A stretch of DNA of 64,000 nucleotides from Schwartzia sp. (in: firmicutes). GTDB lineage: Bacteria; Bacillota; Negativicutes; Selenomonadales; Selenomonadaceae. A program made the position numbers and the translations under genes. Position 1 is the stretch's first letter. Each line of letters starts with the position of its first letter. The stretch spans positions 9,026-73,025 of the forward strand of contig JAFNYY010000096.1 of NCBI GenBank assembly GCA_017383125.1, read 5' to 3'. The notes beneath the pieces are model-generated. The model was not told the origin of the DNA. It did no database searches and saw only the letters and a list, made by a program, of their open reading frames with translations. Of this stretch, positions 11,887-31,006 are shown piece after piece.

Positions 11887-13224
11887 TCAAGCCTTGATTT
11901 CTCCGTTCAGCAGTCCTGCAGCGGAGGTGGCAATAACCTTCACGGAAAGACCGAGAACGGCCTCATCAAAGGTAAAGTGCGCATCGTGATGGCCGGCAGC
12001 CAGCTTTGCTCCAATGTTCAGATAGGCAGCCTGACCGCCATTGTTCTGAACCCGCTGCATGAAGTAGCTGCAATCCTCGCTGCCGCCGAAATCAACCGGC
12101 TCCTCCACAATTTCGCTGAAAATACCAAGTTCCCTGGCATGCTCGGTAAGTGCGTCTGCCAGTGCCGGTGAATTCTCAGCACCGGCTGCGCCGCCGGCCC
12201 GGCTGATATCTACAGTTACGCCGTACATATCGGCGGCCGCCTTTATGATGCGCTGTGCTTCAGACGCCACATACTCATTGACCTCGGTGGAAATTCCGCG
12301 GGTCTCAAGCTGCAGCAGAGCCTTGTCGCCGATGACATTGCGGCCGGAACCGGCAATCAGCTTGCCGACATTTATACGGCTGGTACCGCCGGAGTGACGG
12401 CTGATGGCATGGAGATTGAGGGCAGCGCAAGCCGCAGCCAGCAAAGCATTCTTGCCCTGCTCCGGAGCCATACCGGCATGAGCCGGTACGCCGGTGAAGT
12501 TTGCATCGAATTTAGTGGTAGCCAGCATGCCGTAGATGCGGGCAGCGATGGCACCGGTACGGGGCAGCTTCATTCCGATATGAGCACCCAGCAGATAGTC
12601 GGCATCATCAACGACACCGGCCTCAACCATTGCATAGGCGCCGCGGACGCCTTCCTCTGCCGGCTGGAATATCATCTTTACGGTACCCTTCAGCTCCTCC
12701 TTCAGTTCCGCGAGGATTTTGGCTACTGCCAGACCGATGGTGGTATGACCATCATGGCCGCAGGCATGCATACCCCAGTCATGGACGGAGGCAAAGCCCT
12801 TCTCCAGCGGCTCGTGTCCAGCATCGGTGGTCTCCATGAGGTCAAGGGCATCCATATCGAAGCGCAGGGCAACCACCGGGCCGTCACCGGCACACTTCAT
12901 GGTACCTACGACACCGGTGAGGCCGCCGGCCATTTTTTCTACCCACTGCGGATCTGCTCCCTCAGAGACAGCCCGCTCCATTTCCTTTGCGAGGCGTTCA
13001 TCAGAAGGAACGCCCATCATGGCTTCCTTCTTCACTACTGCGGCACCGGCCTCCACGGCATAGCCCAGTTTCGTCAGCTCTCCGGCCACCATTGCGGCGG
13101 TGCGGAACTCAGTCCAGCCCGGCTCGGCGTATTTATGCAGGTCACGGCGACGGGTGACCATTTCATCATTCATTGCATCGGCGGCGGCAAAAATCTTCTC
13201 CACCAGGGCATTACTCTGTTTCAT
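11887..13224 (-). CDS. M20-family amidohydrolase (AbgA/HipO-like)
   Basis: 445 aa with the metal-site pattern MHACGHDGHT and the acidic EE pair in FQPAEEG. Confidence 0.8.
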   Translation of the reverse strand: MKQSNALVEKIFAAADAMNDEMVTRRRDLHKYAEPGWTEFRTAAMVAGELTKLGYAVEAGAAVVKKEAMMGVPSDERLAKEMERAVSEGADPQWVEKMAGGLTGVVGTMKCAGDGPVVALRFDMDALDLMETTDAGHEPLEKGFASVHDWGMHACGHDGHTTIGLAVAKILAELKEELKGTVKMIFQPAEEGVRGAYAMVEAGVVDDADYLLGAHIGMKLPRTGAIAARIYGMLATTKFDANFTGVPAHAGMAPEQGKNALLAAACAALNLHAISRHSGGTSRINVGKLIAGSGRNVIGDKALLQLETRGISTEVNEYVASEAQRIIKAAADMYGVTVDISRAGGAAGAENSPALADALTEHARELGIFSEIVEEPVDFGGSEDCSYFMQRVQNNGGQAAYLNIGAKLAAGHHDAHFTFDEAVLGLSVKVIATSAAGLLNGEIKA

Positions 13225-13379
13225 CTTTACTACTCCTTCTGCTTGCTCTGAAACACAGATTGGGACAAAAAAGCCCTCATAAATTGTAGCATGATTGAAA
13301 AAAGAGTCAACCGCTTCTTGTCAAAGGAATGATTTTTACCTACAATATGATTCAGCAACATCATTAAAGGAGATATACC

Positions 13380-14645
13380 ATGATAAGCAAAGAACGACTT
13401 CAAAAGCATCTGGACACCCTTGCCGCCATCGGCAAAAGGGAGGACGGCTTCTACCGTCTGGCCTTCACCGATGATGACTGGCAGGGCCGTGACTATCTTA
13501 TAGGTGAAATGAAAAAGGCCGGTCTCTCCATCCGCGTTGATGCCTTCGGCAATGTCATCGCCCGCCGGGAAGGAACCGACGCCTCTGCCGATGCTCCGGC
13601 TGTGCTGTACGGCTCCCACGCCGACAGTGTCCCCGGCGGCGGCAACTTCGACGGCATCGTCGGTACACTCTGCGCCCTGGAGGTAATGACCAGTCTGCAG
13701 GAGGACGGCTTCGCCAACGAGCTGCCCCTTGAGCAGATCCTCTTCATGTGTGAAGAATCAAGCCGCTTCGGTGCCGCCACCCTCGGCAGCCGGGCCATGC
13801 GTGACGAGCTGACCATCGATGACCTCCATCGTCTGAAGGATAAGCAGGGCGTGACCCTCTACGAGGCTTTGAAGTCCCGTGATCTCCGTCCGGACGAACT
13901 TCCCTCCGCCGTCTACACCGCTCCGGCCAAAGCCTTCCTCGAAGTCCACATCGAGCAGGGAAAGGTGCTGGAAGCCAAGAACATCCCCCTCGGCCTCGTC
14001 ACCGGTATTGCTGCCCCTACCCGTTTCCGCGTACACATTGACGGCAGTGCCGACCATAGCGGTGCCACCCCCATGGGGCTCCGCAGCGACGGAGCCTGCT
14101 TCGCCGCCGAGGTCATCCTGGCCGTGGAGAAAATCGCTTCCGAGTACGGCAAAGACAACGACTTCCCCGCCGTCGTCGGTACTGTCGGCATCGTAAATGT
14201 CACTCCCAATGTAATGAATGTCATCCCCGGCAAGGTCACCCTTGGCATCGACATCCGCAGTATCAGCGCCGAAGCAAAGGCCGATGCCGTCCGCCGGATC
14301 AGAGAATTTGTCGAAGAAGTGTCCAAGCGCCGCGGTATCCCCTACAGCGTAGAGCCAGTTTCCGATGAGAAACCCGCCGTTCTTTCGGAAGCTGCCGTAA
14401 ATCTTTTGGCCGACACAGCCGCCGAAGTACTTCCGGAGGCTGTCACCCTGCGTATGCCCAGCGGTGCCGGACACGACGCTATGCACTGGGCCGAGTACTG
14501 CCCCACCGGCATGATCTTCATTCCCTGCCGGGACGGCATCAGCCACAACGGAGCCGAGCATGCCGAGATAGACGACATCACCGACGCCTGCCGTCTGCTG
14601 GAGGCCGCCGTCAAAAAACTAAGCTGTAAGGATGTGACACTCTGA
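13380..14645 (+). CDS. M20-family Zn amidase of the carbamoylase / allantoate amidohydrolase type
   Basis: 421 aa. N-terminal LQKHLDTLAAIGKREDGFYRLAFTDDD, plus GSHADSVPGGGNFDG and SGAGHDAM, fit the hydantoinase/carbamoylase-family amidases. Confidence 0.78.
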   Translation: MISKERLQKHLDTLAAIGKREDGFYRLAFTDDDWQGRDYLIGEMKKAGLSIRVDAFGNVIARREGTDASADAPAVLYGSHADSVPGGGNFDGIVGTLCALEVMTSLQEDGFANELPLEQILFMCEESSRFGAATLGSRAMRDELTIDDLHRLKDKQGVTLYEALKSRDLRPDELPSAVYTAPAKAFLEVHIEQGKVLEAKNIPLGLVTGIAAPTRFRVHIDGSADHSGATPMGLRSDGACFAAEVILAVEKIASEYGKDNDFPAVVGTVGIVNVTPNVMNVIPGKVTLGIDIRSISAEAKADAVRRIREFVEEVSKRRGIPYSVEPVSDEKPAVLSEAAVNLLADTAAEVLPEAVTLRMPSGAGHDAMHWAEYCPTGMIFIPCRDGISHNGAEHAEIDDITDACRLLEAAVKKLSCKDVTL

Positions 14646-15143: not shown

Positions 15144-16925
15144 TCAGTGTTTTGTGTCGCTTATCGGCAGCGGAACCTTTTGACTCTGATTCAGTCTGTC
15201 TTTGGCGGCTGCCCGCTGGTCATATCCCGGCACCAGATAGGTGCTGAGAAGGGCCGGTCGGAATTTCAGCGGATCACCGTCTGCCCGCTTCTCATTTTCC
15301 GTCAGCAGGAGGTCCAGGGCTCTGGCCGTATATTTTGCCGAGGCAGTCATGTGCATGACGATTACGGAGCCGGAGCGAACCCGGTTTTTCCCATCGTAAA
15401 TTCCCGACTGAATTGCCCCCACCATTGCGCTGAGAATCGGCGACTTGTAATCGGTGGTGCTGGCAAAGCCGGAGACAATATAGGTAAAACCTGCATCGAA
15501 AATCGACTGTACGCCGTTCTTATTCAGTGCCAGCGTCGGCGGGCGCATAAGCCTGGTCAGCGGATGACGGCCATCCACTACCACATCACCTACCGTCATC
15601 GCCAGCTTCTCGTATGACTCCGCCACATCCTTGGCGTAGGTTTCCTTGTCCTGCATTGCCTCGGTGCGGCGAGTTTTTTCGTTGTACCGGGCCATCGCCT
15701 TGTGACCGTCGGTATGACTGGCTATATCGTGACCGTCCTGTGCAATAGCCCGCAGGAGGTTTGGATTGTTCGGCATATTCCAGGTGATTATGAAGAATGT
15801 AGCCGGCACATGATGCTTTCGCAGCACATACAGCAGCTTGTTTATGGAGTCATCGTTGCCCCAGTCATCGAAGGTAAGGAAAACCGTCCCCTCCGGCACA
15901 TTCTTAATGACGCCGGTCTTGTCCGCCTTTGCAATCTCCGCGGAGGAAAAGCCCAGCATACGGTCACCGCCGTCAACCGAGGGAGAGCCGATGTATCGCT
16001 TATAGAACTCCGTCTTCAGGTTTTCCCGGCTCACCGGCATGGCAATCGTCTCCGGCTTCAGCTCATAGGGCAGCTTATCCGGTGCCACAGGATAGTCGTA
16101 GAGTTTTCCCGAATTGTTCAGTACTTCCTGCAGTGATGCCGCCCGATAGGCCGAGTCGTTCTGCGGATTTCTCTCCGGCGTATCATCAAGGGACCGGTAA
16201 GCGATATTGTCAATCTTCTGATGCTTTACTGCCAGCATCATGTCCCCGGCCAGCGTCTCCTTTTCGTAAAAATCCGTGCGGATATAGACAATCTGCCCTC
16301 TGCCCAGAGAACGCACACCCTTGCCGAAAAGGGTTTCCATTACTTCCTCGGCGCTTTTTGCATTCTTGTCCTTTGTCCGCACCACATTTACGCTTTGGCC
16401 CATCAGCCGGCAGCCCATAGCGGACACCGCTTCAAACATGAAATCCTCGTTTGAGCCGGTCATTTCCCGAACAAGATTCGTATCTGTTCCATAGTCTTCG
16501 CTCAAAATGCTGCGGACGCGCTCTATCTGACCGCAGATGGAGTCAAAATCATCCGGCTTGTCGGCATCCTGACTTACTCTGATACCGATGGCCAGCTCGT
16601 GACCCCGGGATACAATCATGTCGATATTATCCCGGTTTCGCTCCAGCTCGCGTTCCGTGACAAAGAAGGTGCCGCGCATAGACTCCTCGTCCATTTTGTC
16701 CAGCACATATTCCAGAGCCCCGCGCTTGGACAAACCGCCGAAGGTAAAGACCACCGCCTGCTCCGTCGTATAGACGAAGCGCTGACGCTCTGCCTTGCGG
16801 CCTGCATTAGCCTGCCGTTCGGTGCTGTAGGCAGACTGTGCCTGAGCAAACGAGGCAGGCTGCATCGCCCATGACGAAAAGGTCAGGGTAAAGGCTGCCA
16901 ATCCTGCAGCAATCAATCTCTTCAT
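15144..16925 (-). CDS. Secreted tandem NodB-domain protein: degenerate first domain, intact second polysaccharide deacetylase domain
   Basis: The ORF is 15144..16955. The likely start is MKRLIAAG at 16925, with GGAGA 8 nt upstream. Domain 1 reads VVFTFGGLS...GHELAIG, so the DD and HxxxH motifs are lost. Domain 2 reads VFLTFDDWGND...GHDIASHTDGH, so both motifs are intact. Confidence 0.82.
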   Translation of the reverse strand: MKRLIAAGLAAFTLTFSSWAMQPASFAQAQSAYSTERQANAGRKAERQRFVYTTEQAVVFTFGGLSKRGALEYVLDKMDEESMRGTFFVTERELERNRDNIDMIVSRGHELAIGIRVSQDADKPDDFDSICGQIERVRSILSEDYGTDTNLVREMTGSNEDFMFEAVSAMGCRLMGQSVNVVRTKDKNAKSAEEVMETLFGKGVRSLGRGQIVYIRTDFYEKETLAGDMMLAVKHQKIDNIAYRSLDDTPERNPQNDSAYRAASLQEVLNNSGKLYDYPVAPDKLPYELKPETIAMPVSRENLKTEFYKRYIGSPSVDGGDRMLGFSSAEIAKADKTGVIKNVPEGTVFLTFDDWGNDDSINKLLYVLRKHHVPATFFIITWNMPNNPNLLRAIAQDGHDIASHTDGHKAMARYNEKTRRTEAMQDKETYAKDVAESYEKLAMTVGDVVVDGRHPLTRLMRPPTLALNKNGVQSIFDAGFTYIVSGFASTTDYKSPILSAMVGAIQSGIYDGKNRVRSGSVIVMHMTASAKYTARALDLLLTENEKRADGDPLKFRPALLSTYLVPGYDQRAAAKDRLNQSQKVPLPISDTKH

Positions 16926-16951
16926 AAAATCGTCTCCTAAGTATCCTCCGC

Positions 16952-17971
16952 TCACTTCACCCCAGCCAGGTTGAGATTGCCCCCAAGCCTCCAGATATTC
17001 ACCGACTTAATTCCGTTGGCTTCAATCTCATTGAGCCACATATTCAGTGTAGTCTCGTCGGCATACCAGACCTCGGTCTTTTGTCCGGCCCGGTTTCTGA
17101 AGGAAAAATGCAGAACTCCGCTGTCATCCTCACGAGCCGGCTTGGCTTCCTGCTCTTTTGCCATGGCCACTGCCTCAGCCTCGGTGATGTACTGCTTCTT
17201 CCCGCTTTCCTCCCACAGACAGCCGCCGGTGGAAACAGCGGCCTCCACATTACCCGGAAGCTGCCGCATCTTCTTCAGGGTCTTTGCAATGAAAGCAAAG
17301 TCCGCCTTCGGCCCCGGCCCGCTGTGCAAACCGTAGAGATTGTACAGCATCACAACATAATCCGGACCCTTGCAGTAATCAAGAGAAACATCTGCCGACG
17401 GCTCAAGCACCACCCGCAGCTTCAAATCATTCTTAACCGCCGCATACTGCAGCTTGGAAATCAGCCAGACGAACTTCTTCGCCAGTGCCTCGTCCTTGAA
17501 TACCCTTTCGTAGTCAAGCTCAATGCCGTTGAAGCCCTTTTCCTTCGTCAGCCGCACCAGCTCCGCCACATGAGCGTTCATTGACGGCTCATCCTTCAGC
17601 ACCCGCTGCAGGACAGCCAAATCCTTCTGCACTGCCGTCCCCTTACCGGGAACGAAATCATTGGTAAAGGAAAGATACTCTCCCGGCCGCTCCAGACTCC
17701 GGCTGCCCTTCAGCGACAGCAGAGAGTCCGGCACCACGATTTTATCGCCATCGGTAAAATAGGTGCGGAAATAAACCATCGACCGGAGGTCGTGCCTGAT
17801 TTTTTCCCCGTCCTCCCGGCCACTTTCCGCATCCCAGTCAGCAACCCAGGCCGTCATCAGCATCGGACCATGCTGACTGCTGTGGGGCTTGGCACTGCAT
17901 CCCGTGAGCATCAGCAGGCTGACTCCAGCCGCCAATGCCCCGGCAACTATCTTACTGTGCAAGCGTTTCAC
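16952..17971 (-). CDS. Lipoprotein with a GH18-like glycoside hydrolase signature
   Basis: 339 aa with the lipobox LMLTGC. GFNGIELDYE fits the GH18 G-F-(D/N)-G-x-x-x-D-(W/F/Y)-E catalytic strand. Confidence 0.6.
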   Translation of the reverse strand: MKRLHSKIVAGALAAGVSLLMLTGCSAKPHSSQHGPMLMTAWVADWDAESGREDGEKIRHDLRSMVYFRTYFTDGDKIVVPDSLLSLKGSRSLERPGEYLSFTNDFVPGKGTAVQKDLAVLQRVLKDEPSMNAHVAELVRLTKEKGFNGIELDYERVFKDEALAKKFVWLISKLQYAAVKNDLKLRVVLEPSADVSLDYCKGPDYVVMLYNLYGLHSGPGPKADFAFIAKTLKKMRQLPGNVEAAVSTGGCLWEESGKKQYITEAEAVAMAKEQEAKPAREDDSGVLHFSFRNRAGQKTEVWYADETTLNMWLNEIEANGIKSVNIWRLGGNLNLAGVK

Positions 17972-17992: not shown

Positions 17993-19909
17993 TTACAAGT
18001 TAGTTATGAAAGCATCCAGCAGCTTCTCCCAGTATTCTTCTGCCTGCATCCGGTAAAGTTCCATGCCAACCGGCATCGCTGAGAACAGCTTCTGCTCTTC
18101 CTTTGCCTCCGGCGCGGGCACGGAAATCTCCAGTCCCTTGAATACGCCGTCATAGACATCATCGGCCAGATTGCGCTGGCTCCAGGCATCCTTATTCCAG
18201 CTGCCTTCAAAATAAATGCTGCCATTTTGTTTCACTCTGACTGCGGCATCGCGACAGATTTCCGTTCCGTCCATGGTGACGGTGAGCCTATCGCCCTGCA
18301 GGACAATATCCAGTGCTCTGTCCCCCCGGGAGTTTACCGGAATGGGCGGCACATACTCTTTTCCGCCCTCGGCCAAACTCTGTGCCGGCTCTTCGGCTCG
18401 CTTCGCTGCCTTGGCCAGATAGTACTGAGCCAACTCCGTGGACGGTGCATAGCGGGCAAAGGTCTCCAGCTCCTGCACCTCCACCGCTCTCTTATCCTCT
18501 GCCACCGAAACCGGCTCTACACCGTCCAGCTTCGTCAGCTTCGCCCGGAAAAGTTCGCGGTAATTTTCGTTGTCCAGCTCATTGACCACCAGCTGCCCGT
18601 TAGCCAGGCAGACACATACATAGTCCAGCATAGAATCGCTGGCCCGCAAATAAATTCTCTGATTACCGAATACATTGCCCTGCAGCCGGACCTTCAGATG
18701 AACATCTCCGAATTCCTCGCTGCCCTTCAGCCGGACCATGCCCTTGTTCTCCGGCTCGCTGGTGACGGTGAGGGTATCTCCGGTAAACTCCATCGCTCCC
18801 TGCAGCAAATCAAATTCCTCCGCCTTGGGAGATTTGCCGGTCTCAAAGGTAATGTACTGGTTTATATCGTGCTTTATCCGCATCAGCAGATGATTGGTGG
18901 ACCAGTGGGGCTGCGGCTGCATTCGGGTCAGGTCGTAAATGCTGGCGCCGCGCTGATTGAAGCAGTAGCCCTCACGATTGAAGTTCATCGTGAAAATCTC
19001 GCGAATCCACTTCTCATTCACATCGCTGACCTGCCGATTATTGCCGAAGGCACCGGTATTGGCGTGCATGATGGCATAGAGGCGGGGCACATAGTCAAGC
19101 TGCGTGGCATACAAATACCGGAGCCGCTCGTAGTCATAGCTGATGCGCCGCTTCATGTGGTTATAGCTTTCCTTCGGCTGCTCTTCCTTATCCCGTATGT
19201 AATCCATCAGATAATGATTGTACCGGTTCACAAGACAGCCGCGTAGCTTGGCAAATCTCACCGGGTCCAACTCGCCAAGGTAATTGCCGTGACGGTCAAA
19301 GACATTGATAAACTGCAGACGGTAGCCGTTGCTTCCCATCTCCCAGAAGGAAGTCCTCTCCAAATCCTTCAGCTCCTCCGGCGACAGGAACTTCAGATCC
19401 TTGTTGTCGAATTTTTCCGGATAGGTGAGCATTGTTGCCTTGAAGTTGTACTTCTCCAGAATTTTCTGAGCGAAAATCGCGGTATCCCGGCGTCCGTCCT
19501 CAAACATCAGGAAGAGGGAACGGTCCGGCAGACGCTTTCCTTCCTTATAGTATTCCTCGATGTCCGTCTGGGTGATTGTCACATAGCCCTGACGGTGCAA
19601 AGCGGCCAGATGCTGCTCCAGCACATCCTTGCCAATCAAATCCGACTTGTTTCCGATTCTGTCCACGCCGAAGTAGGACAGTGCAACAAAGCCGGTATCT
19701 GACATCCCCGGCTCCGCTTCCTCGTCCGCCTCAGCAGGAACATAAGTCCCGTGATGGAAAAGGCCCATCCAGACGACATAGGAAAATAAAGCCAGAATAA
19801 GCACCTGCAGAAGAGTACGAAATCTCTTCCGACGGTTTTTCCGCCTGGTATATTTATGGTCTCCGATGACAACTGCAGCGTTTTCCTTTTTATCCATTCT
19901 GCCTGTCAC
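17993..19909 (-). CDS. Membrane-anchored NodB-like protein with C-terminal jelly-roll (lectin/LamG-like) repeats
   Basis: 638 aa with an N-terminal TM segment (LLQVLILALFSYVVWMGLF). The deacetylase-like segment is GFVALSYFGVDR...SLFLMFEDGRRDT. The C-terminus has two beta-rich repeats. The start is ambiguous: GTG at 19909 or ATG at 19897, and both overlap the end of the upstream gene. Confidence 0.6.
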   Translation of the reverse strand: MTGRMDKKENAAVVIGDHKYTRRKNRRKRFRTLLQVLILALFSYVVWMGLFHHGTYVPAEADEEAEPGMSDTGFVALSYFGVDRIGNKSDLIGKDVLEQHLAALHRQGYVTITQTDIEEYYKEGKRLPDRSLFLMFEDGRRDTAIFAQKILEKYNFKATMLTYPEKFDNKDLKFLSPEELKDLERTSFWEMGSNGYRLQFINVFDRHGNYLGELDPVRFAKLRGCLVNRYNHYLMDYIRDKEEQPKESYNHMKRRISYDYERLRYLYATQLDYVPRLYAIMHANTGAFGNNRQVSDVNEKWIREIFTMNFNREGYCFNQRGASIYDLTRMQPQPHWSTNHLLMRIKHDINQYITFETGKSPKAEEFDLLQGAMEFTGDTLTVTSEPENKGMVRLKGSEEFGDVHLKVRLQGNVFGNQRIYLRASDSMLDYVCVCLANGQLVVNELDNENYRELFRAKLTKLDGVEPVSVAEDKRAVEVQELETFARYAPSTELAQYYLAKAAKRAEEPAQSLAEGGKEYVPPIPVNSRGDRALDIVLQGDRLTVTMDGTEICRDAAVRVKQNGSIYFEGSWNKDAWSQRNLADDVYDGVFKGLEISVPAPEAKEEQKLFSAMPVGMELYRMQAEEYWEKLLDAFITNL

Positions 19910-22295
19910 CGTCCTTTTCCTTCAATTCCTCCGCCTTCCTTTTCTTCATGGCGCTGTCAATGCTTACCACATTCCCAGCCCCTTTGTTTTTCTCAGTCTT
20001 CCTTCCTGCGGCGGCCCGCTCCGCCATTTCGACGGCTCTCTGGAGAGTCTCCTGCTTCAGCGTCTTTTCCCGCCGTGCTGCCAAAGGCTGGTAAACGACT
20101 ACCGCTACCAGCTTTTTCATTTTCAGTGGCTTTATCCGCTGTACCGGCCGTGCCGTCTGTTCATCGGCAGACTCAGCAGCTTCAGCCTCGGAAGAGTCTT
20201 CAGTCGGCTCGACCTGCTGGACAGGCTCAGTTTCCTCAGTCTGTGCAGCTTCTGTCACCGACATATCTTCCGCCTCTTCGGGAATTTCGGCAGCTTCAGT
20301 TTCAGCCGCCGTTTTTGCTTCCTCGACATCGTTTTCCCCGGCAATGATTTCTTCTTCCGGTTCCTGCTTTGTCACTGCTGCTCCGGCCGCTGCTGCCAGC
20401 GGCTCCTCGGCCTTCACCGGTTTAGCTTCTTCAGCCGCGGCAGTATTCATCTCGGCCTTTGCTTCTGCTTTTATCTCCGCCTTTTGCGTATCTGCCTTTG
20501 CCTCGCCCTTCTTATCGGCCTGCAGCTCAGCAAGGTCAGCCGGCGTCATTCTGGTACCCCAGGTAGACTTCCAGAAGGTGAACCAGGCGATAGGCATCTG
20601 CCACAGCAGAACGGCCTCATAATAAATGCAGAACCAGATTCCGTAGGCCCAGGTAGTACTGCGGCGCAGGAAAAGCTGTGCCATACTCATCAGGGATGCC
20701 ATCATTACCATTCCGATAAGGAAGGTGGTGGGGAAAACCCGATGCAGCAGCGGCACATAAACAAGATTGTACAGTACGATGATAGGCGCCAAAATCGGTA
20801 CGGCAAGACCCATGTAGAAGCACAGGGACATGAAAGGCTCCTTGCGCCACATATACTTTGCCCCGATAAGAGACTCTCTGAGCCAGGAGCGCTTCCAGCG
20901 CATCTGCTGCTTCAGGAACATCTTGTGGGTATTTGGAACGATGGTGGAACAGACAGCAGTATCCTGATAAGTAGTCCTGTTATGCCGCAAAATAAAATTC
21001 GTCATTGACCGGTCATCACCGAAGGTTGCCCTCTGACCGAGGAATTTTTGATTCAGCCAGTCATCGGCATACTTCAGAACGAGATCCTTGCGATAGCAGG
21101 AAAGCGGACCGGACAGACAGGTAACCGCGTCGAAATAGCCCTCGGCCGCTTTCATTACCCGGAAGGCGATATAATAGCGGACTGACTGCATCTTCGTCAG
21201 CGCGTTTGTGTAGGTATTGGCTACATCGGTACGGCCGGAAACGCCGCCCATCTCTTCGTCCTTAAAAGGCTGGACAATATTGCGGACAGCGAAGGGGTCA
21301 AGGAAGCTGTCGGAATCTACAAATACCAGCAGCTCATGCTTTGCCAGCTTCGCACCTACCGCCATGGCCTCACGCTTGCCCTGGTTGACCGGCTGCACAT
21401 AGTAGTTCAGACGCTCGGCCACATTGTACCGGTCGCCCTCTGCCTTCAGCCGTTCGATTATTTCCTTGATTTTCTCTACCGAGCGGTCGGTAGAGCAGTC
21501 ATCCACTACCATGACCTCCAGCTTCTCCGCCGGATAATCCTGATTGATACAGCTCAATATCGTCCGCTGTATCCACTCCTCTTCATTGAAGCAGGGAACT
21601 ATGACGGTAACACCGGGAGTGAAATCCGGATCAATCTCCACCGGCCGATAGAAAATTGCAAAGAGGTAACGGCTCAAAAGGAAAATTGCCGCGATAATAC
21701 TGTAGAAGTAAAGGAATTTGTTGAACTCAAAATAAATTACCGACTCGGCCCTCATCAGCACGATAATGAGGGTAACAAGCAACAGGAAGCAGGAAGCAAC
21801 GCCCAGCATATAGCGGCCCCGCTTGCGGTTCACATAATGGGACAAAATCTCATCAAACTGGAAAGCGTAGCCCATCGTTCCGTCCGGAAACTCGACCACA
21901 CGGACACAGTGAGCCCCCAGCTTCCTGACATTCATCTCATAGCCTTCGACCATAGACCCCGGCGTTATTTCAAAATCCAGCTTTGCGGCACTGCCCTCTT
22001 TGAGCACTGCCGTCTTCTCCTCCGTGCAGACCATTATGCCGCTTCCGGATATATCCTTTGCTACGGAGGAAATCTTGAACTCCCGACCCACCTTATTGCG
22101 AACCCTGACGGTCACCGGAAAGTCAACAATATAGCGCTGCCCTTCCTTTTCGCTGTTGATATAGTCGCGAAAATCCCGAATCTCAACATCGTTGTGGCGG
22201 CGATCACGGTTGCTTCTCTGCTGCTCGCCGTCCGGAACATGGGAAAGGAGACGCCTATCATGTTTTTCTTTTAATACTATGTCCTCAATACTCAA
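19890..22295 (-). CDS. PilZ domain fused to a class I hyaluronan-synthase-like processive GT2, with a long acidic disordered C-terminal tail
   Basis: 801 aa. The N-terminus has DISGSG (DxSxxG), with KEGQR 27 aa upstream and an Arg-rich stretch RSNRDRRHNDVEIRDFRD further upstream. The GT2 core motifs are VVDDCSTD, FVDSDS, SGPLSCYR, FGDDRSMTN, KQQMRWKRSW (QxxRW) and TWGTR. The last roughly 230 aa are E/A/K-rich low complexity. Confidence 0.85.
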   Translation of the reverse strand: MSIEDIVLKEKHDRRLLSHVPDGEQQRSNRDRRHNDVEIRDFRDYINSEKEGQRYIVDFPVTVRVRNKVGREFKISSVAKDISGSGIMVCTEEKTAVLKEGSAAKLDFEITPGSMVEGYEMNVRKLGAHCVRVVEFPDGTMGYAFQFDEILSHYVNRKRGRYMLGVASCFLLLVTLIIVLMRAESVIYFEFNKFLYFYSIIAAIFLLSRYLFAIFYRPVEIDPDFTPGVTVIVPCFNEEEWIQRTILSCINQDYPAEKLEVMVVDDCSTDRSVEKIKEIIERLKAEGDRYNVAERLNYYVQPVNQGKREAMAVGAKLAKHELLVFVDSDSFLDPFAVRNIVQPFKDEEMGGVSGRTDVANTYTNALTKMQSVRYYIAFRVMKAAEGYFDAVTCLSGPLSCYRKDLVLKYADDWLNQKFLGQRATFGDDRSMTNFILRHNRTTYQDTAVCSTIVPNTHKMFLKQQMRWKRSWLRESLIGAKYMWRKEPFMSLCFYMGLAVPILAPIIVLYNLVYVPLLHRVFPTTFLIGMVMMASLMSMAQLFLRRSTTWAYGIWFCIYYEAVLLWQMPIAWFTFWKSTWGTRMTPADLAELQADKKGEAKADTQKAEIKAEAKAEMNTAAAEEAKPVKAEEPLAAAAGAAVTKQEPEEEIIAGENDVEEAKTAAETEAAEIPEEAEDMSVTEAAQTEETEPVQQVEPTEDSSEAEAAESADEQTARPVQRIKPLKMKKLVAVVVYQPLAARREKTLKQETLQRAVEMAERAAAGRKTEKNKGAGNVVSIDSAMKKRKAEELKEKDGDRQNG

Positions 22296-22321: not shown

Positions 22322-23461
22322 TTAATCTTCAGCAGGTTCCTCCGGCTCCCCTTCTTCGGGGACATCCTCCTCCAACGGTTCACCTTCTTCGGAGCTGCCG
22401 TTATCCGTCGGTGCGCCCTCTTCTGAGGCACCGCTTTCTGCCGGTGTTCCCGTCTTGGTGGCAACATTCCCCGCAGGTTTCCCCTGTGCGGGGACACCGT
22501 TTTCCGGCACGGCCTTCGGAGCGCCTTCTTCAACCTCCATCGGAGCGACCGGAATATACTTGATTTTTGAGAAATAATTTACATCCGCGAAGACAACGCC
22601 CTTTTTGTCAAAGGCCGTCAGAATATATTCAAGGCGCTCGGCGAAATTTGGCCCGCTGCTTCCGGCTGCCTTCTGCACCGTCGAATCCTTGATTGTCGGC
22701 TTCTTATCGATTGCTGGTCTCTGTTCGCGAGGGACAGCCGCTTTAGCCGGCGGCTCCACCGTAAGACCTAGCTTCATGGACAGGATGCTGCCGTTAGGTA
22801 CGCTGAGTGCAAAATTATCGGCATCGGCCTGACTGTTAATCGTCGCCATGTCGATATAGACATTTGCTCTCACCGCCGCTTCCAGCCCGCAGGCATTGAC
22901 TGCCTTCAGCACATCCGGCGTATAAACGGTGCGGTTGGCCATGAACAGCTTCGGTGCCGTACCGGTCTGCGCCCGGATAACCTTCTGTGTCCTGCACAGC
23001 TCACCGATTATCTTGGTTATTGGTTGTCTGTCCAGACGGCTGGCACCAACGAAAGTATAATTGCCCAGGGGAAAACCGCCCTCGGTAATCAGCTTGATGG
23101 TCTCATCTTCCTCTGCCGCATTCATGCCTTCGGCAAAGAAAACGGCGTTTGCCTTATGCTTCGTCAGGCAATCCACAATCTGTGCCGTCATCACCCTGTC
23201 AGGCAGACCTTCCACCACCAGCGCTACCTGCGGCAGTTCATTGCGGTTGGCCACAATGACAAGAGCCGGCTCCGGATGCTCAATGATTTTTTCCCTCGCT
23301 GCCGCGATTTCATCATCAGCCTGCCAGAACATATCCAGCTCGTTTATGCCGCCGGGTATGTCCGCCTTCTGAGCGAAATCTTCCCACGGCGCCCACCAGT
23401 AAATCAAACCGCAGACCACGGATATGATTACGGTGTAAAGCATTTTTATCTGGAAATTCAA
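22322..23461 (-). CDS. Membrane-anchored NodB-like protein with degenerate catalytic motifs and an acidic Pro/Glu-rich tail
   Basis: The ORF is 22322..23539. The likely start is TTG at 23461, 6 nt after GGAGAA and just after the dehydrogenase's TAA; ATG at 23443 is the alternative. The fold-like segment is VALVVEGLPDRVMTAQIVDCLTKHKANAVFFAEG, with no TFDD or HxxxH. The tail ends ...EEGEPLEEDVPEEGEPEEPAED. Confidence 0.6.
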   Translation of the reverse strand: MNFQIKMLYTVIISVVCGLIYWWAPWEDFAQKADIPGGINELDMFWQADDEIAAAREKIIEHPEPALVIVANRNELPQVALVVEGLPDRVMTAQIVDCLTKHKANAVFFAEGMNAAEEDETIKLITEGGFPLGNYTFVGASRLDRQPITKIIGELCRTQKVIRAQTGTAPKLFMANRTVYTPDVLKAVNACGLEAAVRANVYIDMATINSQADADNFALSVPNGSILSMKLGLTVEPPAKAAVPREQRPAIDKKPTIKDSTVQKAAGSSGPNFAERLEYILTAFDKKGVVFADVNYFSKIKYIPVAPMEVEEGAPKAVPENGVPAQGKPAGNVATKTGTPAESGASEEGAPTDNGSSEEGEPLEEDVPEEGEPEEPAED

Positions 23462-23471: not shown

Positions 23472-24785
23472 TTACAAACTCCAAACCCGGAAGTCCTGCT
23501 GGGCCAGGCTGCTGCTGTCAAACATACTCTTGACATCAATCAGCAGCTTTCTGCCGTCGGTCTTTTTATAGAGCTGCTTGAGCTGCTCCGCCGAAAGATT
23601 GCGGAACTGCTGATGCGCCACGAGGAAAACAAGACAATCCGCATCCTTCACCTCATCCAGTGAAGTAAGCTCGATTCCGTATTCCTTGGCGAAGATTTCC
23701 CGGTCGGCCACCGGGTCGACCGCCGTCAGCTTCAGTCCCATTTCCGCCAATTCGTTGTAAACATCCACAGCCCGGGAGTTGCGGGTATCGATGCAGTCCT
23801 CCTTGAAGGTCATGCCGCAGAGTACCACATTGGCCCGGCTGACATCTATTCCTTCCACAATCATTTCTCTGACGACGGAACGAGCCACAAATTCGCTCAT
23901 GCCGTCATTAATCCGGCGGCCTGCCGCGATAAGCTGAGAATGGTACCCCAGCTTCTCTGCCTCGTAAATGAAATAGTAAGGATCAACGCCGATGCAGTGA
24001 CCGCCTACCAGACCGGGACGGAAGCCCAGAGCGTTCCACTTCGTATTCATGGCCTCAACGACCTCATGGGTTGAGATACCCATTCTGTTAAAGGCCATGG
24101 CCAGCTCATTCATAAAAGCAATGTTAATGTCCCGCTGAGAATTTTCCGCTACCTTGGCAGCCTCGGCCACCTTGATGCTGCCGGCACGATGAACACCGGC
24201 TTCGATAATCAGACTGTAGACATTTGCCACCAGCTCCAGAGTTGCCTCATCCATGCCGGAAACAATTTTCACGATATTTTTCAGACGATGCACCGGGTCT
24301 GCCGGATTGATACGCTCCGGCGAATAACCGATGAAGAACTCACTGCCCAGCTGCAAGCCGGATTTCTCCGCCAAAATCGGACCGCAGACATCCTCCGTAA
24401 CTCCGGGATAAACGGTGGACTCAAAGACAACCACCGTATCCTTCTTCATATTTGCGCCCACCAGAGCCGAGGCACTTCTGATAGGCTCAAGGTCCGGCGT
24501 CTTATCACCATTTACCGGAGTAGGTACCGCAACGATGATGAAAGCCGCTTCCTGCAGAGCAGCCGCATCAGAGGTAAACTCCACTCCGCTGCAGCGCACC
24601 GCCTCGTCACCGGCTTCCTGTGTCGGGTCAATACCGGCCTTATACGCAGCAATCTTCTCCGCATTCAAGTCGAAGCCTATTACCCGGAAATGCTTTGCAA
24701 AGGCAACTGCCAGCGGCAAGCCCACATAGCCAAGCCCTACTACAACCAAAGCTCTTTTTCTTTCTGTCAGTTCATCGAAAATCAT
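23472..24785 (-). CDS. NAD-dependent UDP-aminosugar 6-dehydrogenase (WbpO/TviB/CapL-like nucleotide-sugar dehydrogenase)
   Basis: 437 aa. VVGLGYVGLPLAVAFAKHFRVIGFDLNAEKIAAYKAGIDPTQE, YSPERINP, AENSQRDINIAFMNELA and GLVGGHCIGVDPYY match my recollection of the WbpO/TviB subgroup rather than HasB/Ugd. Confidence 0.7.
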   Translation of the reverse strand: MIFDELTERKRALVVVGLGYVGLPLAVAFAKHFRVIGFDLNAEKIAAYKAGIDPTQEAGDEAVRCSGVEFTSDAAALQEAAFIIVAVPTPVNGDKTPDLEPIRSASALVGANMKKDTVVVFESTVYPGVTEDVCGPILAEKSGLQLGSEFFIGYSPERINPADPVHRLKNIVKIVSGMDEATLELVANVYSLIIEAGVHRAGSIKVAEAAKVAENSQRDINIAFMNELAMAFNRMGISTHEVVEAMNTKWNALGFRPGLVGGHCIGVDPYYFIYEAEKLGYHSQLIAAGRRINDGMSEFVARSVVREMIVEGIDVSRANVVLCGMTFKEDCIDTRNSRAVDVYNELAEMGLKLTAVDPVADREIFAKEYGIELTSLDEVKDADCLVFLVAHQQFRNLSAEQLKQLYKKTDGRKLLIDVKSMFDSSSLAQQDFRVWSL

Positions 24786-24813: not shown

Positions 24814-26556
24814 TCAGCTATGATAAAAGAAGGACAAGGCCAGCCAAACCGTATTGTTAATCCGGTTGGTGGTCATTTCCTTTAAGTGATCAAATTCCAG
24901 CGTAGCCATCAGATTTTTCACCAGAGTACGGGTCACGCCGATGCCCCAGCCCCTGAAGCCGTTCATCCTGTCCGCCACACCGTTCATGGTGTGCTGTACA
25001 TAGGTGGCCCGGGGCTGATGATAATACTTCAGATAGTATGAAGTGCGTCCCGGCTCCTCGCTCCAGGGAGTACCGTGCTGCAGTGTAAGCACATATCCGT
25101 TGCCGTTCCCCACATAACTGTCGCGGCCCATAAGGAACATTGCCCCGAAATCGAACTGACGGCCCAATGGCACATGACCGTTCAGCATATAGATATTCCG
25201 CCGTCCGCCGCCGTTCATGCCAAATCCGAAATATCCGGCCTCCAGACTGTATTTACCCGGCACTGCATATCCGGCGGTAAAGGTGGCTACATTCCTTGCC
25301 GAGTTTACTGAGCCGTACCGGGCCGCGAAATTTATTTTATCGCCGCCCTCCAGCATCATGCCCTTGAAGCTGCTGTCGTAGACATTGCCCTCTGCCATGG
25401 TGGCGCCCATCTTGCCCGCAGTAGCCCGGACCGCTCCCACATTACCGGTCAGATAATAGCGCTCCAGTCTGAGCCAGTGGTCATCTCCGGAGCCGGACAG
25501 ATTCTTTTCCGACTCCACCATAGCAACGGCATGCCAGTTTCCGTCAATATTATAGTCACCGTAAAGACGGTTTCTCAGACGCAGTCTCTTATCATTAGAG
25601 ACATCACCGTTGTCATTTTTGTAGTCAAGTCTCAGCTCACCGTTGAGATTGAAGCGCCGCGCCTCTTTTACAGAGCTTTCCCAAGCCTCCTGATTGCGGG
25701 CCTGAGCCTGAGCCGCTTCATCCTCAAAATAGCCAAGCTCCTGCAGCTCGGTTCCCAGCTTTGCCCGAAGCCTGCCGGCTGCCCGAATATACTTATCGTC
25801 GATGTCGGGATATTTTCCCTCATCCATTTCCAAAAGAAACGCGGCCGTTTTCTCCGCCGCTTCTTCACGGCTGAGTGTTCTCGGAGATTTTCCCTCCAAA
25901 TCAATGAAGCCGCCCTCGGCCAAAGTCTCCAGCTCCAGACTGTCGGTGAAATCCACCTTGTCCTGCTCCGCCATGTCCCGGAGGTAAGCAGCGGCGTATT
26001 CCTCAGCCGCCTCCTTCAGCTTCTCACGGCAGCGGTTCACTTTTTCGTTCAGAGCAACGACCTCGTCCATCTCATCGCCGGGCTTATTGGTGCTGCTGTA
26101 GAGCCGGTATACTTTCCGCTGGAGCTTGCGGGAAAGTTTCTCCGTCCGCTTCTCCAGTTCCTCCAGTTCCGCAGACGCGGGAGTCTTCTTTGCCGGGTTT
26201 GTATTTGCCGTGCCTCTGCCGTTCTGCAAAAGCTCATCCTGATGCTTTTCCCATTCCTTCAGAATCATTTCCCGCTGCCGGACATTCTGTTCCAGTTTTT
26301 CCTTTCGGCTCAGCCGATCTTCCGGCACATTCTTTTCCTTTGCCAGCTTTTTGGTAACATTTTCCAGTTTCTTCTTCAGTACCTTGTAGCGGCCCTCATC
26401 TTCTGCCCGCAGAGCCGTCGTCTCGGCATATTCCTGTGCCGCCCTCTGGGCTCTGCTGTCCTTTGGGGGCTGTATCGTTTTATCTCTCGTTGCAGCGGCG
26501 GTACACGCCAGAAGCGTGAATACACCCAAAAGTGCCGCAATCTTTCGCTTGTTCAT
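24814..26556 (-). CDS. Outer-membrane protein: signal/lipobox-like N-terminus, about 280 aa coiled-coil region, C-terminal beta-barrel-like domain. Candidate polysaccharide export porin.
   Basis: 580 aa. The N-terminus ends in TLLAC. The first half is highly charged with heptad-like repeats. The last roughly 270 aa show an alternating hydrophobic/polar strand pattern (RFNLNGELRLDYKND, RLRLRNRLYGDYNIDGNWHAVAMVE, WLRLERYYLTGNV, ...NTVWLALSFFYHS). It is the first gene of the EPS operon. Confidence 0.55.
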   Translation of the reverse strand: MNKRKIAALLGVFTLLACTAAATRDKTIQPPKDSRAQRAAQEYAETTALRAEDEGRYKVLKKKLENVTKKLAKEKNVPEDRLSRKEKLEQNVRQREMILKEWEKHQDELLQNGRGTANTNPAKKTPASAELEELEKRTEKLSRKLQRKVYRLYSSTNKPGDEMDEVVALNEKVNRCREKLKEAAEEYAAAYLRDMAEQDKVDFTDSLELETLAEGGFIDLEGKSPRTLSREEAAEKTAAFLLEMDEGKYPDIDDKYIRAAGRLRAKLGTELQELGYFEDEAAQAQARNQEAWESSVKEARRFNLNGELRLDYKNDNGDVSNDKRLRLRNRLYGDYNIDGNWHAVAMVESEKNLSGSGDDHWLRLERYYLTGNVGAVRATAGKMGATMAEGNVYDSSFKGMMLEGGDKINFAARYGSVNSARNVATFTAGYAVPGKYSLEAGYFGFGMNGGGRRNIYMLNGHVPLGRQFDFGAMFLMGRDSYVGNGNGYVLTLQHGTPWSEEPGRTSYYLKYYHQPRATYVQHTMNGVADRMNGFRGWGIGVTRTLVKNLMATLEFDHLKEMTTNRINNTVWLALSFFYHS

Positions 26557-26968: not shown

Positions 26969-27682
26969 TTATAGTGTTATCCCTGTTGCCCGGACAATCG
27001 CCGCGGCAATGGCAAAATACGGCCCGTAGGCGAAGAACTCATCCTTCTTTTTCTTCGTGACTATCAGCAGCACCGCCGCCGCCAGGCCCCCAAGAATGAA
27101 GCCGAAGGCCACTGCCGATGAAGTATACCCTGCTCCCAGCCACATTCCCAATGCCGTTATCAGTTTAATGTCCCCGCCGAAAATACTGCCTTTAAGCACG
27201 ACCGCCAGCAAAAGCATTATGCCTCCGGCCGCCAGACCAGTAAGCAGCGACTCCAAGGGTTCCGGCGGCGGCACCGGCATACCGGGAGGCAGTGCCAGAC
27301 AATCGGGCATATACGATTTCAGAAGCGACTGAACGATACCAGCCGCCGCCAAAAACATAACCGCCGAATCAAAAATAATATACTGTTCCCAATCTGTAAT
27401 CGAAATAAACAGAAGGGTCAGATAAAAGCAAAGATTAAAAATTCCTGCCGCCGGATATGAAGTATCAACCCCAAAATAAGCAGCTGCACATCCGACAAAA
27501 AGCAGCGGCAGGCGCAAAACGGCCCTGCTCCTCTTTTCCTCCGGAAAGCTCAATTCCGTTTTTTCGCGGCTGTACAATAGGTCTATCAACCTAGAAAGCC
27601 CGACAGTTGTTATTCCCGCCAGAGCTGCCGTCAATATTATACGCAGCACAAACATCACCCAAAAATAAATATTTAATATCAC
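26969..27682 (-). CDS. tadV: A24-family prepilin peptidase (TadV/CpaA-like)
   Basis: 237 aa polytopic membrane protein. It has the GGDIKLITALGMWLG motif and an upstream ITD aspartate motif. It is divergent from the tad operon. Confidence 0.85.
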   Translation of the reverse strand: MILNIYFWVMFVLRIILTAALAGITTVGLSRLIDLLYSREKTELSFPEEKRSRAVLRLPLLFVGCAAAYFGVDTSYPAAGIFNLCFYLTLLFISITDWEQYIIFDSAVMFLAAAGIVQSLLKSYMPDCLALPPGMPVPPPEPLESLLTGLAAGGIMLLLAVVLKGSIFGGDIKLITALGMWLGAGYTSSAVAFGFILGGLAAAVLLIVTKKKKDEFFAYGPYFAIAAAIVRATGITL

Positions 27683-27743
27683 AATAAAACATCAACAGCC
27701 CGTAGTCAACCTCATATTACTGACGATAAAATAAAAAAAACTG

Positions 27744-27772
27744 TTGAGAAAATTTAGAAAGACTTCTATAAT
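27744..27772 (+). promoter_or_regulatory. Candidate sigma70 promoter of the tad operon
   Basis: TTGAGA (27744-27749), a 17 nt spacer, then TATAAT (27767-27772). An A-tract (ATAAAATAAAAAAAA) lies upstream. The cpaB start is 75 nt downstream. Confidence 0.5.
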
Positions 27773-27846
27773 GGTTATATACTTGTAAAAATAGCTTTAT
27801 CTATCATAAAGTCGGTACTAAAATTCACATAAGGACGTAGTAAATT

Positions 27847-28779: not shown

Positions 28780-28781
28780 TA

Positions 28782-30143: not shown

Positions 30144-30153
30144 GATAAAGAAG

Positions 30154-30993
30154 GTGAAGGACATGATAGAGGATAAAATCAGTGGTGTCGTCATTACCTT
30201 TTTCAGCACCGCTTCTGCTGTCGGCAAAACCCTTATCAGTATAAATATGGCTGCCGAGCTGGCCAGACAGGGCTATCGTGTCTGTCTGGCTGATTTCGAC
30301 CTGCAGTTCGGCGATGTAGCAAATTATCTGCAGATGCAGGGTTCCACTACTGTTTACAATGCAGGTCAGCGACTTGCGGAAAACAGTGACTACCCACTGG
30401 AGGAGCTTGCCTCCGTGTGCACCTACAACGATGTAAGCTTCGGCGTCCTCGCTGCTCCGGAGGAGCTTTCACAGGCCTACAACTTTACCGCTGACACGGC
30501 CGAGCGGATAGTGAACCGCCTCCGGATGCACTATGACTATGTCATTATCGACACCACATCCATGTTCAGCGTGCTGAACCTTACTCTGCTTGATTTAAGT
30601 ACAATCATCACCTTCCTTGGGGTTGTCGATTTCATCCCGACCATAAAGAACATGAAAATCGGCAACGAAACTCTGCAGTCCCTTAACTACGACGCAAATA
30701 AAATCCGTCTGGTGCTGAACCGCAGCGACTCAGCTACGCAGCTCAGCATCCGGGAAGTCGAAGAAAAGACACTGGGCAGCTCCTTTTATCATGTCCTTTC
30801 CAATGATTTCCATGCCGCCAACGAGTCAGTCCAGACCGGGATCCCCCTCGTTCTCCGCAAGAACAACAATCAGCTGACAAAGGATTTGCGGCAGCTGGTT
30901 GCCCTCTATACGAATCATACCTATCAGGAAGACGCCGATTTTGACGAACCGACCCGAAAGTCCGGTGGCTGGTTCTCGAAGCTCTTTAGCTGA
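30154..30993 (+). CDS. ParA/MinD-like ATPase, TadZ/CpaE paralog without a receiver domain
   Basis: 279 aa. The P-loop region is VITFFSTASAVGKTLISINMAAELARQG. GTG 30154 or ATG 30163 could be the start. Confidence 0.7.
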   Translation: MKDMIEDKISGVVITFFSTASAVGKTLISINMAAELARQGYRVCLADFDLQFGDVANYLQMQGSTTVYNAGQRLAENSDYPLEELASVCTYNDVSFGVLAAPEELSQAYNFTADTAERIVNRLRMHYDYVIIDTTSMFSVLNLTLLDLSTIITFLGVVDFIPTIKNMKIGNETLQSLNYDANKIRLVLNRSDSATQLSIREVEEKTLGSSFYHVLSNDFHAANESVQTGIPLVLRKNNNQLTKDLRQLVALYTNHTYQEDADFDEPTRKSGGWFSKLFS

Positions 30994-31006
30994 GGTGGTT
31001 TAAGCT

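Follow-up and report, generated by a model that had tools for sequence, protein, structure and literature searches.

Can a synthase of the hyaluronan type be gated directly by cyclic diguanylate (c-di-GMP)? The question is raised by one gene in a 64,000-nucleotide stretch of a Schwartzia sp. assembly (GCA_017383125.1, contig JAFNYY010000096.1, positions 9,026 to 73,025), the whole of which is referred to here as the window. The gene, at 19890..22295 on the minus strand, encodes a processive family 2 glycosyltransferase (GT2) of the hyaluronan synthase (HAS)/NodC type with a PilZ domain fused to its N-terminus. The first-pass annotation, made from the letters and a list of open reading frames (ORFs), had described such a fusion and suggested that it would put hyaluronan-like synthesis under the control of c-di-GMP. 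The 801-amino-acid ORF lies exactly where that annotation had it, and every string quoted from it is found in the translation at the stated relative positions, but the strand was not mentioned; the plus-strand reading of 19890-22295 is full of stops and the gene is therefore on the minus strand. Translation begins at a TTG codon with a Shine-Dalgarno-like GAGG 9 nt upstream, public gene callers report an identical 801-aa product on 7 metagenomic contigs, and in a genome scan a copy with 98% identity turned up in a Selenomonadaceae metagenome-assembled genome (MAG; locus L007). Taken as a whole, and with considerable room for error, we favour the reading that this is a synthase-dependent exopolysaccharide (EPS) system typical of the Negativicutes, in which a HAS/NodC-type synthase is gated by its own PilZ domain.

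To our knowledge direct gating by c-di-GMP through a fused PilZ domain is experimentally established only for cellulose synthase, where the PilZ domain is C-terminal, alginate synthesis making use of a separate PilZ protein. We also know of essentially no study of the biofilm matrices of those Negativicutes that carry the synthase. PilZ reviews and surveys describe PilZ on cellulose synthase and on Alg44, and one paper states, in generic terms, that glycosyltransferases are among the domains commonly combined with PilZ in multidomain proteins (10.1101/2020.02.11.943704). No description of an N-terminal PilZ domain on a HAS-like synthase, of the operon or of the arginine-rich "DRR" tail set out below was found in the literature, an earlier passing mention being possible. 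The combination of PilZ and synthase domains is already visible in precomputed Pfam annotations, and the architecture appears to be not hidden but uncharacterised. If the favoured reading is true it would represent a third form of PilZ-synthase wiring, in which an N-terminal PilZ domain leads by a helix into the first transmembrane (TM) helix of an enzyme of the HAS/NodC/chitin synthase lineage, and its reach would extend to gut, rumen, oral and beer-spoilage Negativicutes (Selenomonas, Mitsuokella, Megamonas, Dialister, Megasphaera, Pectinatus and Sporomusa).

Relatives of the synthase are encoded by at least 547 species genomes across much of the Negativicutes, and the PilZ-HAS-like fusion architecture is conserved. 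There are thousands of close homologues, of which the best 120 are 64-86% identical, with carriers that include Selenomonas ruminantium, S. infelix, Mitsuokella multacida, Megamonas, Anaerovibrio, Pectinatus and Megasphaera cerevisiae, as well as Dialister, Sporomusa, Pelosinus, Propionispora and Anaerospora.

The catalytic core and the PilZ domain

The HAS-type catalytic domain, with its interface and TM helices, occupies residues ~216-585 (20541..21650, minus strand). In a BLASTP comparison with HasA of Streptococcus pyogenes, for which the exact database entry HASA_STRP6 was used, residues 170-582 align with HasA 13-412 at 28% identity over 421 aa (E 2e-50). The HasA strings that the first-pass annotation had given prove to be correct, and each of the four motif pairs is aligned in register: SGPLSCYRKD at 395-404, with its SGPLSCYR core; NQKFLGQRATFGDDRSMTNF at 415-434, which includes GDDR at 426-429; LKQQMRWKRSWLRES at 461-475; and TWGTR at 578-582, the last four residues of which (579-582) are the WGTR gating loop. 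The DD, DSD and QxxRW motifs expected of a processive GT2 enzyme are likewise present, as DD 265-266 (in VVDD 263-266), DSD 327-329 (in DSDS 327-330) and QQMRW 463-467. Furthermore the collinearity extends into the membrane, where the region ~151-215 aligns with HasA residues 13-60, the two N-terminal TM helices of that enzyme.

Profile searches place the core in the same neighbourhood, with Pfam matches to Glycos_transf_2, Glyco_tranf_2_3 and Chitin_synth_2 (95.6 bits, residues 313-603). NodC (TIGR04242) is the best NCBIfam model at 171.7 bits over residues 222-536, below its equivalog cutoff of 550; the PgaC/IcaA model (TIGR03937) gives 107.4 bits against a cutoff of 422.3, and the BcsA models (TIGR03030 / PRK11498) only 31.7 bits against 699, over residues 216-276 alone, which leaves the synthase outside the BcsA family. 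A search of PDB sequences (phmmer) returned strong matches to hyaluronan synthases only, namely Xenopus HAS1 (8smm, 3e-34) and the Chlorella virus enzyme CvHAS (7sp7, 8e-34), with BcsA at 1.5e-5. An AlphaFold2 (AF2) model of residues 1-605, taken here as full length, has a mean confidence (pLDDT) of 77 and a predicted TM-score (pTM) of 0.76; its best Foldseek match is again HAS1 (8smn, 1.4e-20, TM-score 0.56/0.65), followed by CvHAS at 1e-16 to 1e-19, BcsA at ~1e-12 to 1e-13 and yeast Chs1 at ~1e-10. The likeness to HasA could have turned out to be no better than that to any GT2 enzyme; it does exceed it, with HAS structures reaching 1e-34 in the sequence search and 1e-20 in the fold search where BcsA reaches 1e-5 and 1e-13. 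Architecture and motifs clearly assign the core to the class I HAS / NodC / Chitin_synth_2 type and not to generic GT2 enzymes, and as judged from these scores the synthase is an orthologue of none of HasA, NodC and PgaC.

The PilZ barrel lies in residues ~54-150 (21846..22136, minus strand). The Pfam PilZ model (PF07238) matches residues 53-150 with 25.7 bits in the whole protein, and with 29.8 bits when residues 1-166 are searched, both above the cutoff of 22.5, and 34/35 homologue N-termini match it at E <= 0.01. As the match begins at profile position 6 the RxxxR motif falls outside it. The AF2 model of residues 1-166 is a six-stranded barrel with pLDDT >90 (strands 55-66, 72-82, 86-91, 103-110, 121-135 and 141-147), after which a helix begins at residue 151, giving the six strands and C-terminal helix of a PilZ domain. 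A profile search of PDB sequences with the N-terminal alignment recovered no PilZ structure, only chance matches at E >0.2; PilZ domains are too divergent for such a search, and a fold search was therefore needed. With Foldseek the top PDB matches are MotI/DgrA (5vx6), BcsA (4hg6), YcgR (5y6g) and Alg44 (4rt1), followed by MrkH, PP4397, VCA0042 and PlzA, almost all of the top matches being PilZ domains that bind c-di-GMP. That some 150 N-terminal residues are PilZ-like, as first proposed, is thus borne out by both the Pfam score and the fold.

In the full-length model DSSP shows the C-terminal helix of the barrel continuing unbroken into TM1 (helix 151-188), with TM2 at 190-215; this connecting region, residues ~151-215, corresponds to 21651..21845 on the minus strand. 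The N-terminal domain, then, has a true PilZ fold and according to the models is cytoplasmic and rigidly joined to the membrane domain.

Conservation of motifs was counted in columns of 94 non-redundant homologue N-termini, invariant columns being taken from two alignments (A1 and A2), and at the level of species in 82 loci from other species. The [D/N]xSxxG motif is intact, with S83 and G86 invariant and position 81 occupied by D in 77 and N in 17 of the 94 homologues; in the window synthase it is the perfect DISGSG (81-86) that had been noticed at the outset, and the distance from R54 to D81 is indeed 27 residues. A barrel loop, PGSM(P/V)EGYEM (112-121), is also invariant in the family, and distant fusions keep it in the form PxGxxPE. 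PilZ domains in general do not have this loop, and its conservation suggests a contact to the glycosyltransferase domain.

Arginine motifs and their history

In place of RxxxR the window synthase has KEGQR (50-54). R54, the second arginine of the motif, is invariant, as is G52, whilst Y55 is nearly so, all directly before strand 1. The first-pass annotation had taken KEGQR for a KxxxR variant of the c-di-GMP switch. It was right that K50 occupies the site of the first arginine, where it aligns (hmmsearch, MAFFT) with the first Arg of the canonical RRxxxR of distant homologues, but a conserved KxxxR variant it is not, with lysine in only about half of the family. The model that followed from it, in which K50 replaces the first arginine in a functional switch and the product is hyaluronan-like, can call upon this alignment, upon the HAS-like core and upon lysine being the commonest residue at the position (51/94 proteins, 40/82 species). 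In the other species the residue is E (13), N (12), A (7), Q (6) or, in one each, L, D, S or I, and it is never R; because about half of the species do without lysine here, a lysine contact is not a requirement of the family. We consider this model, the product of which is taken up with the operon below, to be improbable.

What is invariant lies further upstream, in a stretch that had previously been treated as a mere secondary extra. Residues 1-54 (22134..22295, minus strand) form an arginine-rich N-terminal tail, predicted to be disordered, in which D13-R14-R15, V20-P21-D22, R27, N29 and D31-R32-R33 are invariant or nearly so; R14, R15, R27, R32 and R33 are invariant in all 94 proteins and all 82 species. 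The arginine-rich string originally singled out, RSNRDRRHNDVEIRDFRD (residues 27-44), takes in R27, N29 and the second DRR. Between the second DRR and G52 runs a linker of 17-25 residues that is free to vary in both sequence and length. In the AF2 model residues 1-40 have pLDDT <60 and no secondary structure, and a short helix spans 42-51 (the linker being ~34-51). In known PilZ domains an N-terminal arm wraps the ligand, and the modelled disordered tail resembles such an arm.

The history of these motifs can be followed in more distant relatives. A HMMER search of 1.84 billion cluster representatives gave 592 proteins at E <= 1e-30, and in ~30 of the best 150 an N-terminal PilZ domain is covered or contained. 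In several of them the canonical motif stands directly before strand 1, as ERRHHKR (P0134), ERRSCER (P0137), DRRRAPR (P0132), DRRRSPR (P0148) and DRRGAIR (P0131), and the fusions with (D/E)RRxxxR and [D/N]xSxxG score 30-44 bits on Pfam PilZ together with a Chitin_synth_2 match. Several of these proteins are labelled "hyaluronan synthase" by JGI. One, P0148, is from a Mariprofundaceae (zetaproteobacterial) MAG (JAWPNL010000009.1, locus L087, 8001-9617) and has a canonical RxxxR; its gene is an orphan, without deacetylase, family 18 glycoside hydrolase (GH18) or dehydrogenase neighbours. Because the distant fusions carry textbook (D/E)RRxxxR and [D/N]xSxxG motifs, the domain in the window synthase descends from a canonical c-di-GMP receptor. 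From these comparisons the PilZ-HAS-like fusion is old and widespread and began with such a receptor, and the clade of the window synthase is one that has specifically lost the first arginine of RxxxR.

Two histories are possible. In one, the DRRG block would be the old RR of RRxxxR, moved away from R54 by an insertion of 17-25 residues, for which P0131 (DRRGAIRY) and P0126 (SRRGIHQRY) speak, as both have a DRRG block abutting xRY. In the other, the DRR tail would have coexisted with RxxxR and the first arginine would have been lost later; P0128, with a DRR...DRR tail, an insertion and a canonical R-L-S-I-R before strand 1, speaks for this, as does hmmsearch, which puts the canonical motifs at the K50-R54 position. 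Both histories predict that the missing contacts come from the invariant arginine tail and not from K50. A domain without the first arginine but with an invariant arginine tail upstream amounts to a natural experiment on the minimal needs of a PilZ domain for binding c-di-GMP.

The operon and its probable product

The synthase is the fourth of seven co-directional genes, and the content and order of this operon are kept in Mitsuokella, Anaerosinus and 80 further species. Conservation of the neighbours was scored by tblastn of the operon proteins against the 82 loci, many of the absences being on contigs too short to span the whole cluster. All seven genes are on the minus strand. The first (24814..26556; 62/82 loci) encodes a protein of 580 aa that has a lipoprotein-like signal, a long coiled coil and a C-terminal half rich in Gly, Tyr and Asn. 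The second (23472..24785; 65/82) is a uridine diphosphate (UDP)-N-acetylhexosamine 6-dehydrogenase like TviB, WbpA and Cap5O, and the third (22322..23461; 76/82) a polysaccharide deacetylase of carbohydrate esterase family 4 (CE4), of 379 aa according to public gene callers. Downstream of the synthase are a membrane-anchored protein of ~634 aa (17993..19897; 81/82) with a divergent PgaB-like CE4 domain and a C-terminal beta-rich domain, a 339-aa GH18-like protein of chitinase fold (16952..17971; 73/82) and, as the last gene, a second CE4 polysaccharide deacetylase of 593-603 aa (15144..16955; 76/82).

Of the partners of the synthase the PgaB-like gene is the best conserved. An 8-nt overlap (19890-19897) between its start and the stop of the synthase gene suggests translational coupling, and the protein has an N-terminal TM segment, NCBIfam matches to PgaB and IcaB at 1e-5 to 6e-7 and a PDB match to PgaB (3vus, 6.8e-6). 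Of the other two deacetylases, the 379-aa protein matches Polysacc_deac_1 at 1.7e-12 and NodB and PdaB-like NCBIfam models, and the last gene product matches the same Pfam family at 1.6e-30 together with PdaB, NodB and PgdA-like models. In Sporomusaceae-type loci these two CE4 enzymes do not flank the cluster; they are either fused into one protein of ~875 aa, as in Anaerosinus massiliensis (L005, 7237-9864), or both lie upstream of the synthase.

If the product were hyaluronan a UDP-glucose 6-dehydrogenase (hasB) would be anticipated beside the synthase, as in HasA-type pairing. The dehydrogenase that is found there has three UDPG_MGDP_dh Pfam domains and is TviB-like, with 428.5 bits on the TviB NCBIfam model but only 122-153 bits on the UDP-glucose dehydrogenase models TuaD and AglM, and its best PDB match is Cap5O at 1e-51, UDP-glucose dehydrogenases following at 1e-30 or weaker. 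It would seem unlikely that the product is hyaluronan because the operon has this TviB-like dehydrogenase, which is of the UDP-N-acetylhexosamine type and is not HasB, along with a GH18-like hydrolase, three conserved deacetylases of the CE4/PgaB-like kind and what is probably an outer-membrane protein. The hyaluronan-like synthesis suggested at first is therefore not upheld. The CE4 (NodB-like) and GH18-like neighbours fit the chemistry of a beta-1,4-linked N-acetylglucosamine (GlcNAc) chain, and the product is probably a de-N-acetylated GlcNAc-based polymer, in which N-acetylglucosaminuronic acid (GlcNAcA) is possibly a constituent.

The 580-aa protein matched no Pfam family. It is absent from all loci labelled Lachnospiraceae, Oscillospiraceae or Butyrivibrio, and the same loci, except L050 and L053, are without the dehydrogenase, MAG labels not being fully reliable. 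In Negativicutes the 580-aa protein is the conserved first gene product of the operon, and its absence exactly where a locus bears a monoderm Clostridia label fits its probable role as an outer-membrane component for export, which would be needed in diderms only. It could represent a new outer-membrane polysaccharide exporter of diderm Firmicutes, and the operon more generally offers candidates for the export of a polymer across the outer membrane of these bacteria.

Two other gene groups adjoin the EPS operon. Directly upstream and divergent from it is a Tad/Flp-type pilus locus (26969-33096 in the window; 26969-27682 on the minus and 27847-33096 on the plus strand) with genes for an A24 prepilin peptidase, RcpC/CpaB, a secretin, a ParA/TadZ-like ATPase, a receiver-domain-CbiA protein and T2SSF. 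This locus was rejected as a part of the EPS system, as the adjacency is found in the closest relative (L007) only and not in the other 81 loci. Downstream of the cluster are two divergently oriented M20-family peptidase genes (11887-14645), with GatCAB genes beyond, which are seemingly unrelated.

Proposed gating by c-di-GMP and known systems

In the mechanism that we propose, the HAS/NodC-type GT2 domain would polymerise a GlcNAc-based chain and translocate it through its own TM channel, with the TviB-like dehydrogenase, two genes upstream, probably providing UDP-GlcNAcA, either as a second substrate or as an alternative one. In the periplasm the membrane-anchored PgaB-like protein and the two CE4 enzymes would then de-N-acetylate the polymer, which may be trimmed by the GH18-like protein and could leave the cell by way of the 580-aa outer-membrane protein. 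By analogy with BcsA and Alg44/Alg8, the cytoplasmic PilZ domain most likely makes polymerisation dependent on c-di-GMP. Contacts to the ligand would be expected from [D/N]xSxxG (D81, S83 and G86) and R54, and the remaining ones from the disordered arginine tail (R14/R15, R27 and R32/R33), around either one c-di-GMP or an intercalated dimer. The signal may then pass along the continuous PilZ-helix/TM1 connection, through the conserved 112-121 loop, or by both routes. A fuller version of this proposal is put forward only tentatively: that the DRR...R...DRR tail with one kept arginine is a new kind of PilZ site gating a Negativicutes-wide EPS, and that this EPS is a new acidic, partly de-N-acetylated chitin-like polymer of GlcNAc, glucosamine (GlcN) and GlcNAcA, exported by a new family of outer-membrane proteins.

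A number of observations weigh against the PilZ-gated reading. The first arginine of RxxxR is absent in 82/82 species, and its mutation usually abolishes c-di-GMP binding, as with R17A in Alg44 (PMC12564702). There is no GGDEF or EAL gene in the 64-kb window, and GGDEF ORFs are found near the operon in 6/82 loci (L022, L028, L040, L065, L068 and L075), which is not clearly above chance. In these six the GGDEF-motif ORF lies ~4.5-7 kb upstream of the synthase on the same strand, the species including Pectinatus haikarae, Anaerospora hongkongensis and a Sporomusaceae MAG, and this may be chance in genomes rich in GGDEF. In favour of the reading, GGDEF, EAL and PilZ proteins are encoded in Selenomonas genomes (PMC5478684, citing Romling et al. 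2013). As to the product, the sugar composition is read from the neighbours only, the dehydrogenase is absent in 17/82 loci, some of them on short contigs, and both the GH18-like and PgaB-like domains score below curated thresholds, the former with 25.1 bits on Glyco_hydro_18 where the cutoff is 29.6.

The loss of the first arginine throughout the family, together with the lack of a consistent genomic link to diguanylate cyclases in the window and among the 82 loci, would also be expected if the PilZ domain were degenerate, having lost c-di-GMP binding and been retained as a structural or protein-interaction module, for example in oligomerisation or as a dock for a partner or a different receptor. 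In that case the DRR tail would bind something else, such as acidic phospholipids, a partner protein or acidic surfaces of the enzyme itself. Non-binding domains of PilZ fold are documented, as the "divergent" xPilZ, but those non-binders have lost both motifs (bioRxiv 10.1101/814665). In the present family the second arginine is invariant, as are the S and G of [D/N]xSxxG, five more invariant arginines sit in the disordered arm, which is the pattern to be expected of a nucleotide-binding arm, and the distant relatives are fully canonical. A degenerate domain is thus rather unlikely, although it is a serious competitor; should the PilZ domain prove not to bind c-di-GMP, the finding would shrink to an unremarkable glycosyltransferase with a degenerate PilZ domain. 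A second view, that the altered arginines serve to bind another messenger such as c-di-AMP, cGAMP or (p)ppGpp, can point to the non-canonical arginine motif and to the wide use of c-di-AMP in Firmicutes. We know of no PilZ domain specific for another messenger, however, and the guanine-reading [D/N]xSxxG is intact, so that this view must be regarded as very improbable.

If the PilZ-gated reading is followed, the system is like BcsA or Alg44/Alg8 in its presumed way of working, but it is a member of neither. With BcsA (4hg6, 4p00) it shares a processive membrane GT2 with QxxRW and a gating loop, a fused PilZ domain and a synthase-dependent EPS operon, and the model of the N-terminal domain can in part be superposed on the PilZ domain of BcsA (Foldseek 2e-4). 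However, the PilZ domain of BcsA is C-terminal, after TM8, and not N-terminal before TM1, the cores are only distantly related in both sequence and fold, and no BcsB-like partner was seen at the window operon. BcsA has a canonical RxxxR, the first arginine of which tethers the gating loop, and it is this arginine that the window synthase is without.

The likeness to Alg44/Alg8 is in a cytoplasmic PilZ domain at the N-terminus that leads straight into a TM helix and acts on a GT2 polymerase, and the Alg44 PilZ structures 4rt0 and 4rt1 are among the fold matches. There the PilZ domain and the GT2 are separate proteins whereas here they are one polypeptide, and Alg44 has a periplasmic membrane-fusion domain that the window synthase does not. 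Alg44 furthermore carries a canonical R17xxxR21 (PMC12564702).

Class I HAS enzymes (HasA, the Chlorella virus HAS structures 7sp6-9 and Xenopus HAS1 8smm-p) are the best matches in both sequence and fold, HasA being collinear from TM1 to the WGTR loop with shared SGPLxxYR, GDDRxxTN, QQxRWxKS and WGTR, though at only the low identity given above. We know of no HAS enzyme with a PilZ or other nucleotide-sensor domain. In has operons, moreover, HasB provides UDP-glucuronic acid (UDP-GlcA), unlike the UDP-N-acetylhexosamine dehydrogenase, deacetylases and GH18-like protein of the window operon. NodC and the chitin synthases are close through the best NCBIfam model and the Chitin_synth_2 match, but the NodC score is far below the equivalog cutoff, NodC makes short oligomers and is without PilZ, and NodC and chitin synthases have GEDR where the window synthase, as HAS, has GDDR. 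By sequence the synthase is a member of the HAS / NodC / Chitin_synth_2 superfamily that reaches no equivalog threshold and has no HasB partnership.

The PgaABCD/IcaADBC systems are similar in having a GT2 synthase, a membrane or periplasmic PgaB-like CE4 deacetylase and, in diderms, an outer-membrane exporter, and PgaC/PgaD are controlled by c-di-GMP at the protein level (PMC12564702). There, however, c-di-GMP binds at the PgaC-PgaD interface and not to a PilZ domain, the PgaC score is only 107 bits, and no PgaD or PgaA homologue was seen at the window operon. A further parallel is NfrB of E. coli, reportedly described in 2021 by Junkermeier and Hengge and by Sellner and colleagues as a GT2 fused to a c-di-GMP-binding MshEN domain. 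It too is said to be a non-cellulose EPS synthase of GT2 type with a fused c-di-GMP receptor and an outer-membrane partner; the differences are reportedly that the MshEN receptor is C-terminal, that the GT2 belongs to another subfamily and that the polymer is one of N-acetylmannosamine (ManNAc).

Finally, the first account of the synthase left out a C-terminal tail of ~220 residues (residues ~586-801; 19890..20540, minus strand). This cytoplasmic tail is acidic, Ala/Glu/Lys-rich and of low complexity, with a basic segment at its end, and is probably disordered. It is lineage-specific: homologues are 598-650 aa long compared with 801 aa for the window synthase, and most stop ~20-40 residues past WGTR. 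Outside the synthase's own lineage only P0002 carries a similar tail, which is shorter, and the long C-terminal tails of P0121-P0123, some with coiled-coil-like ends, are unrelated to it.

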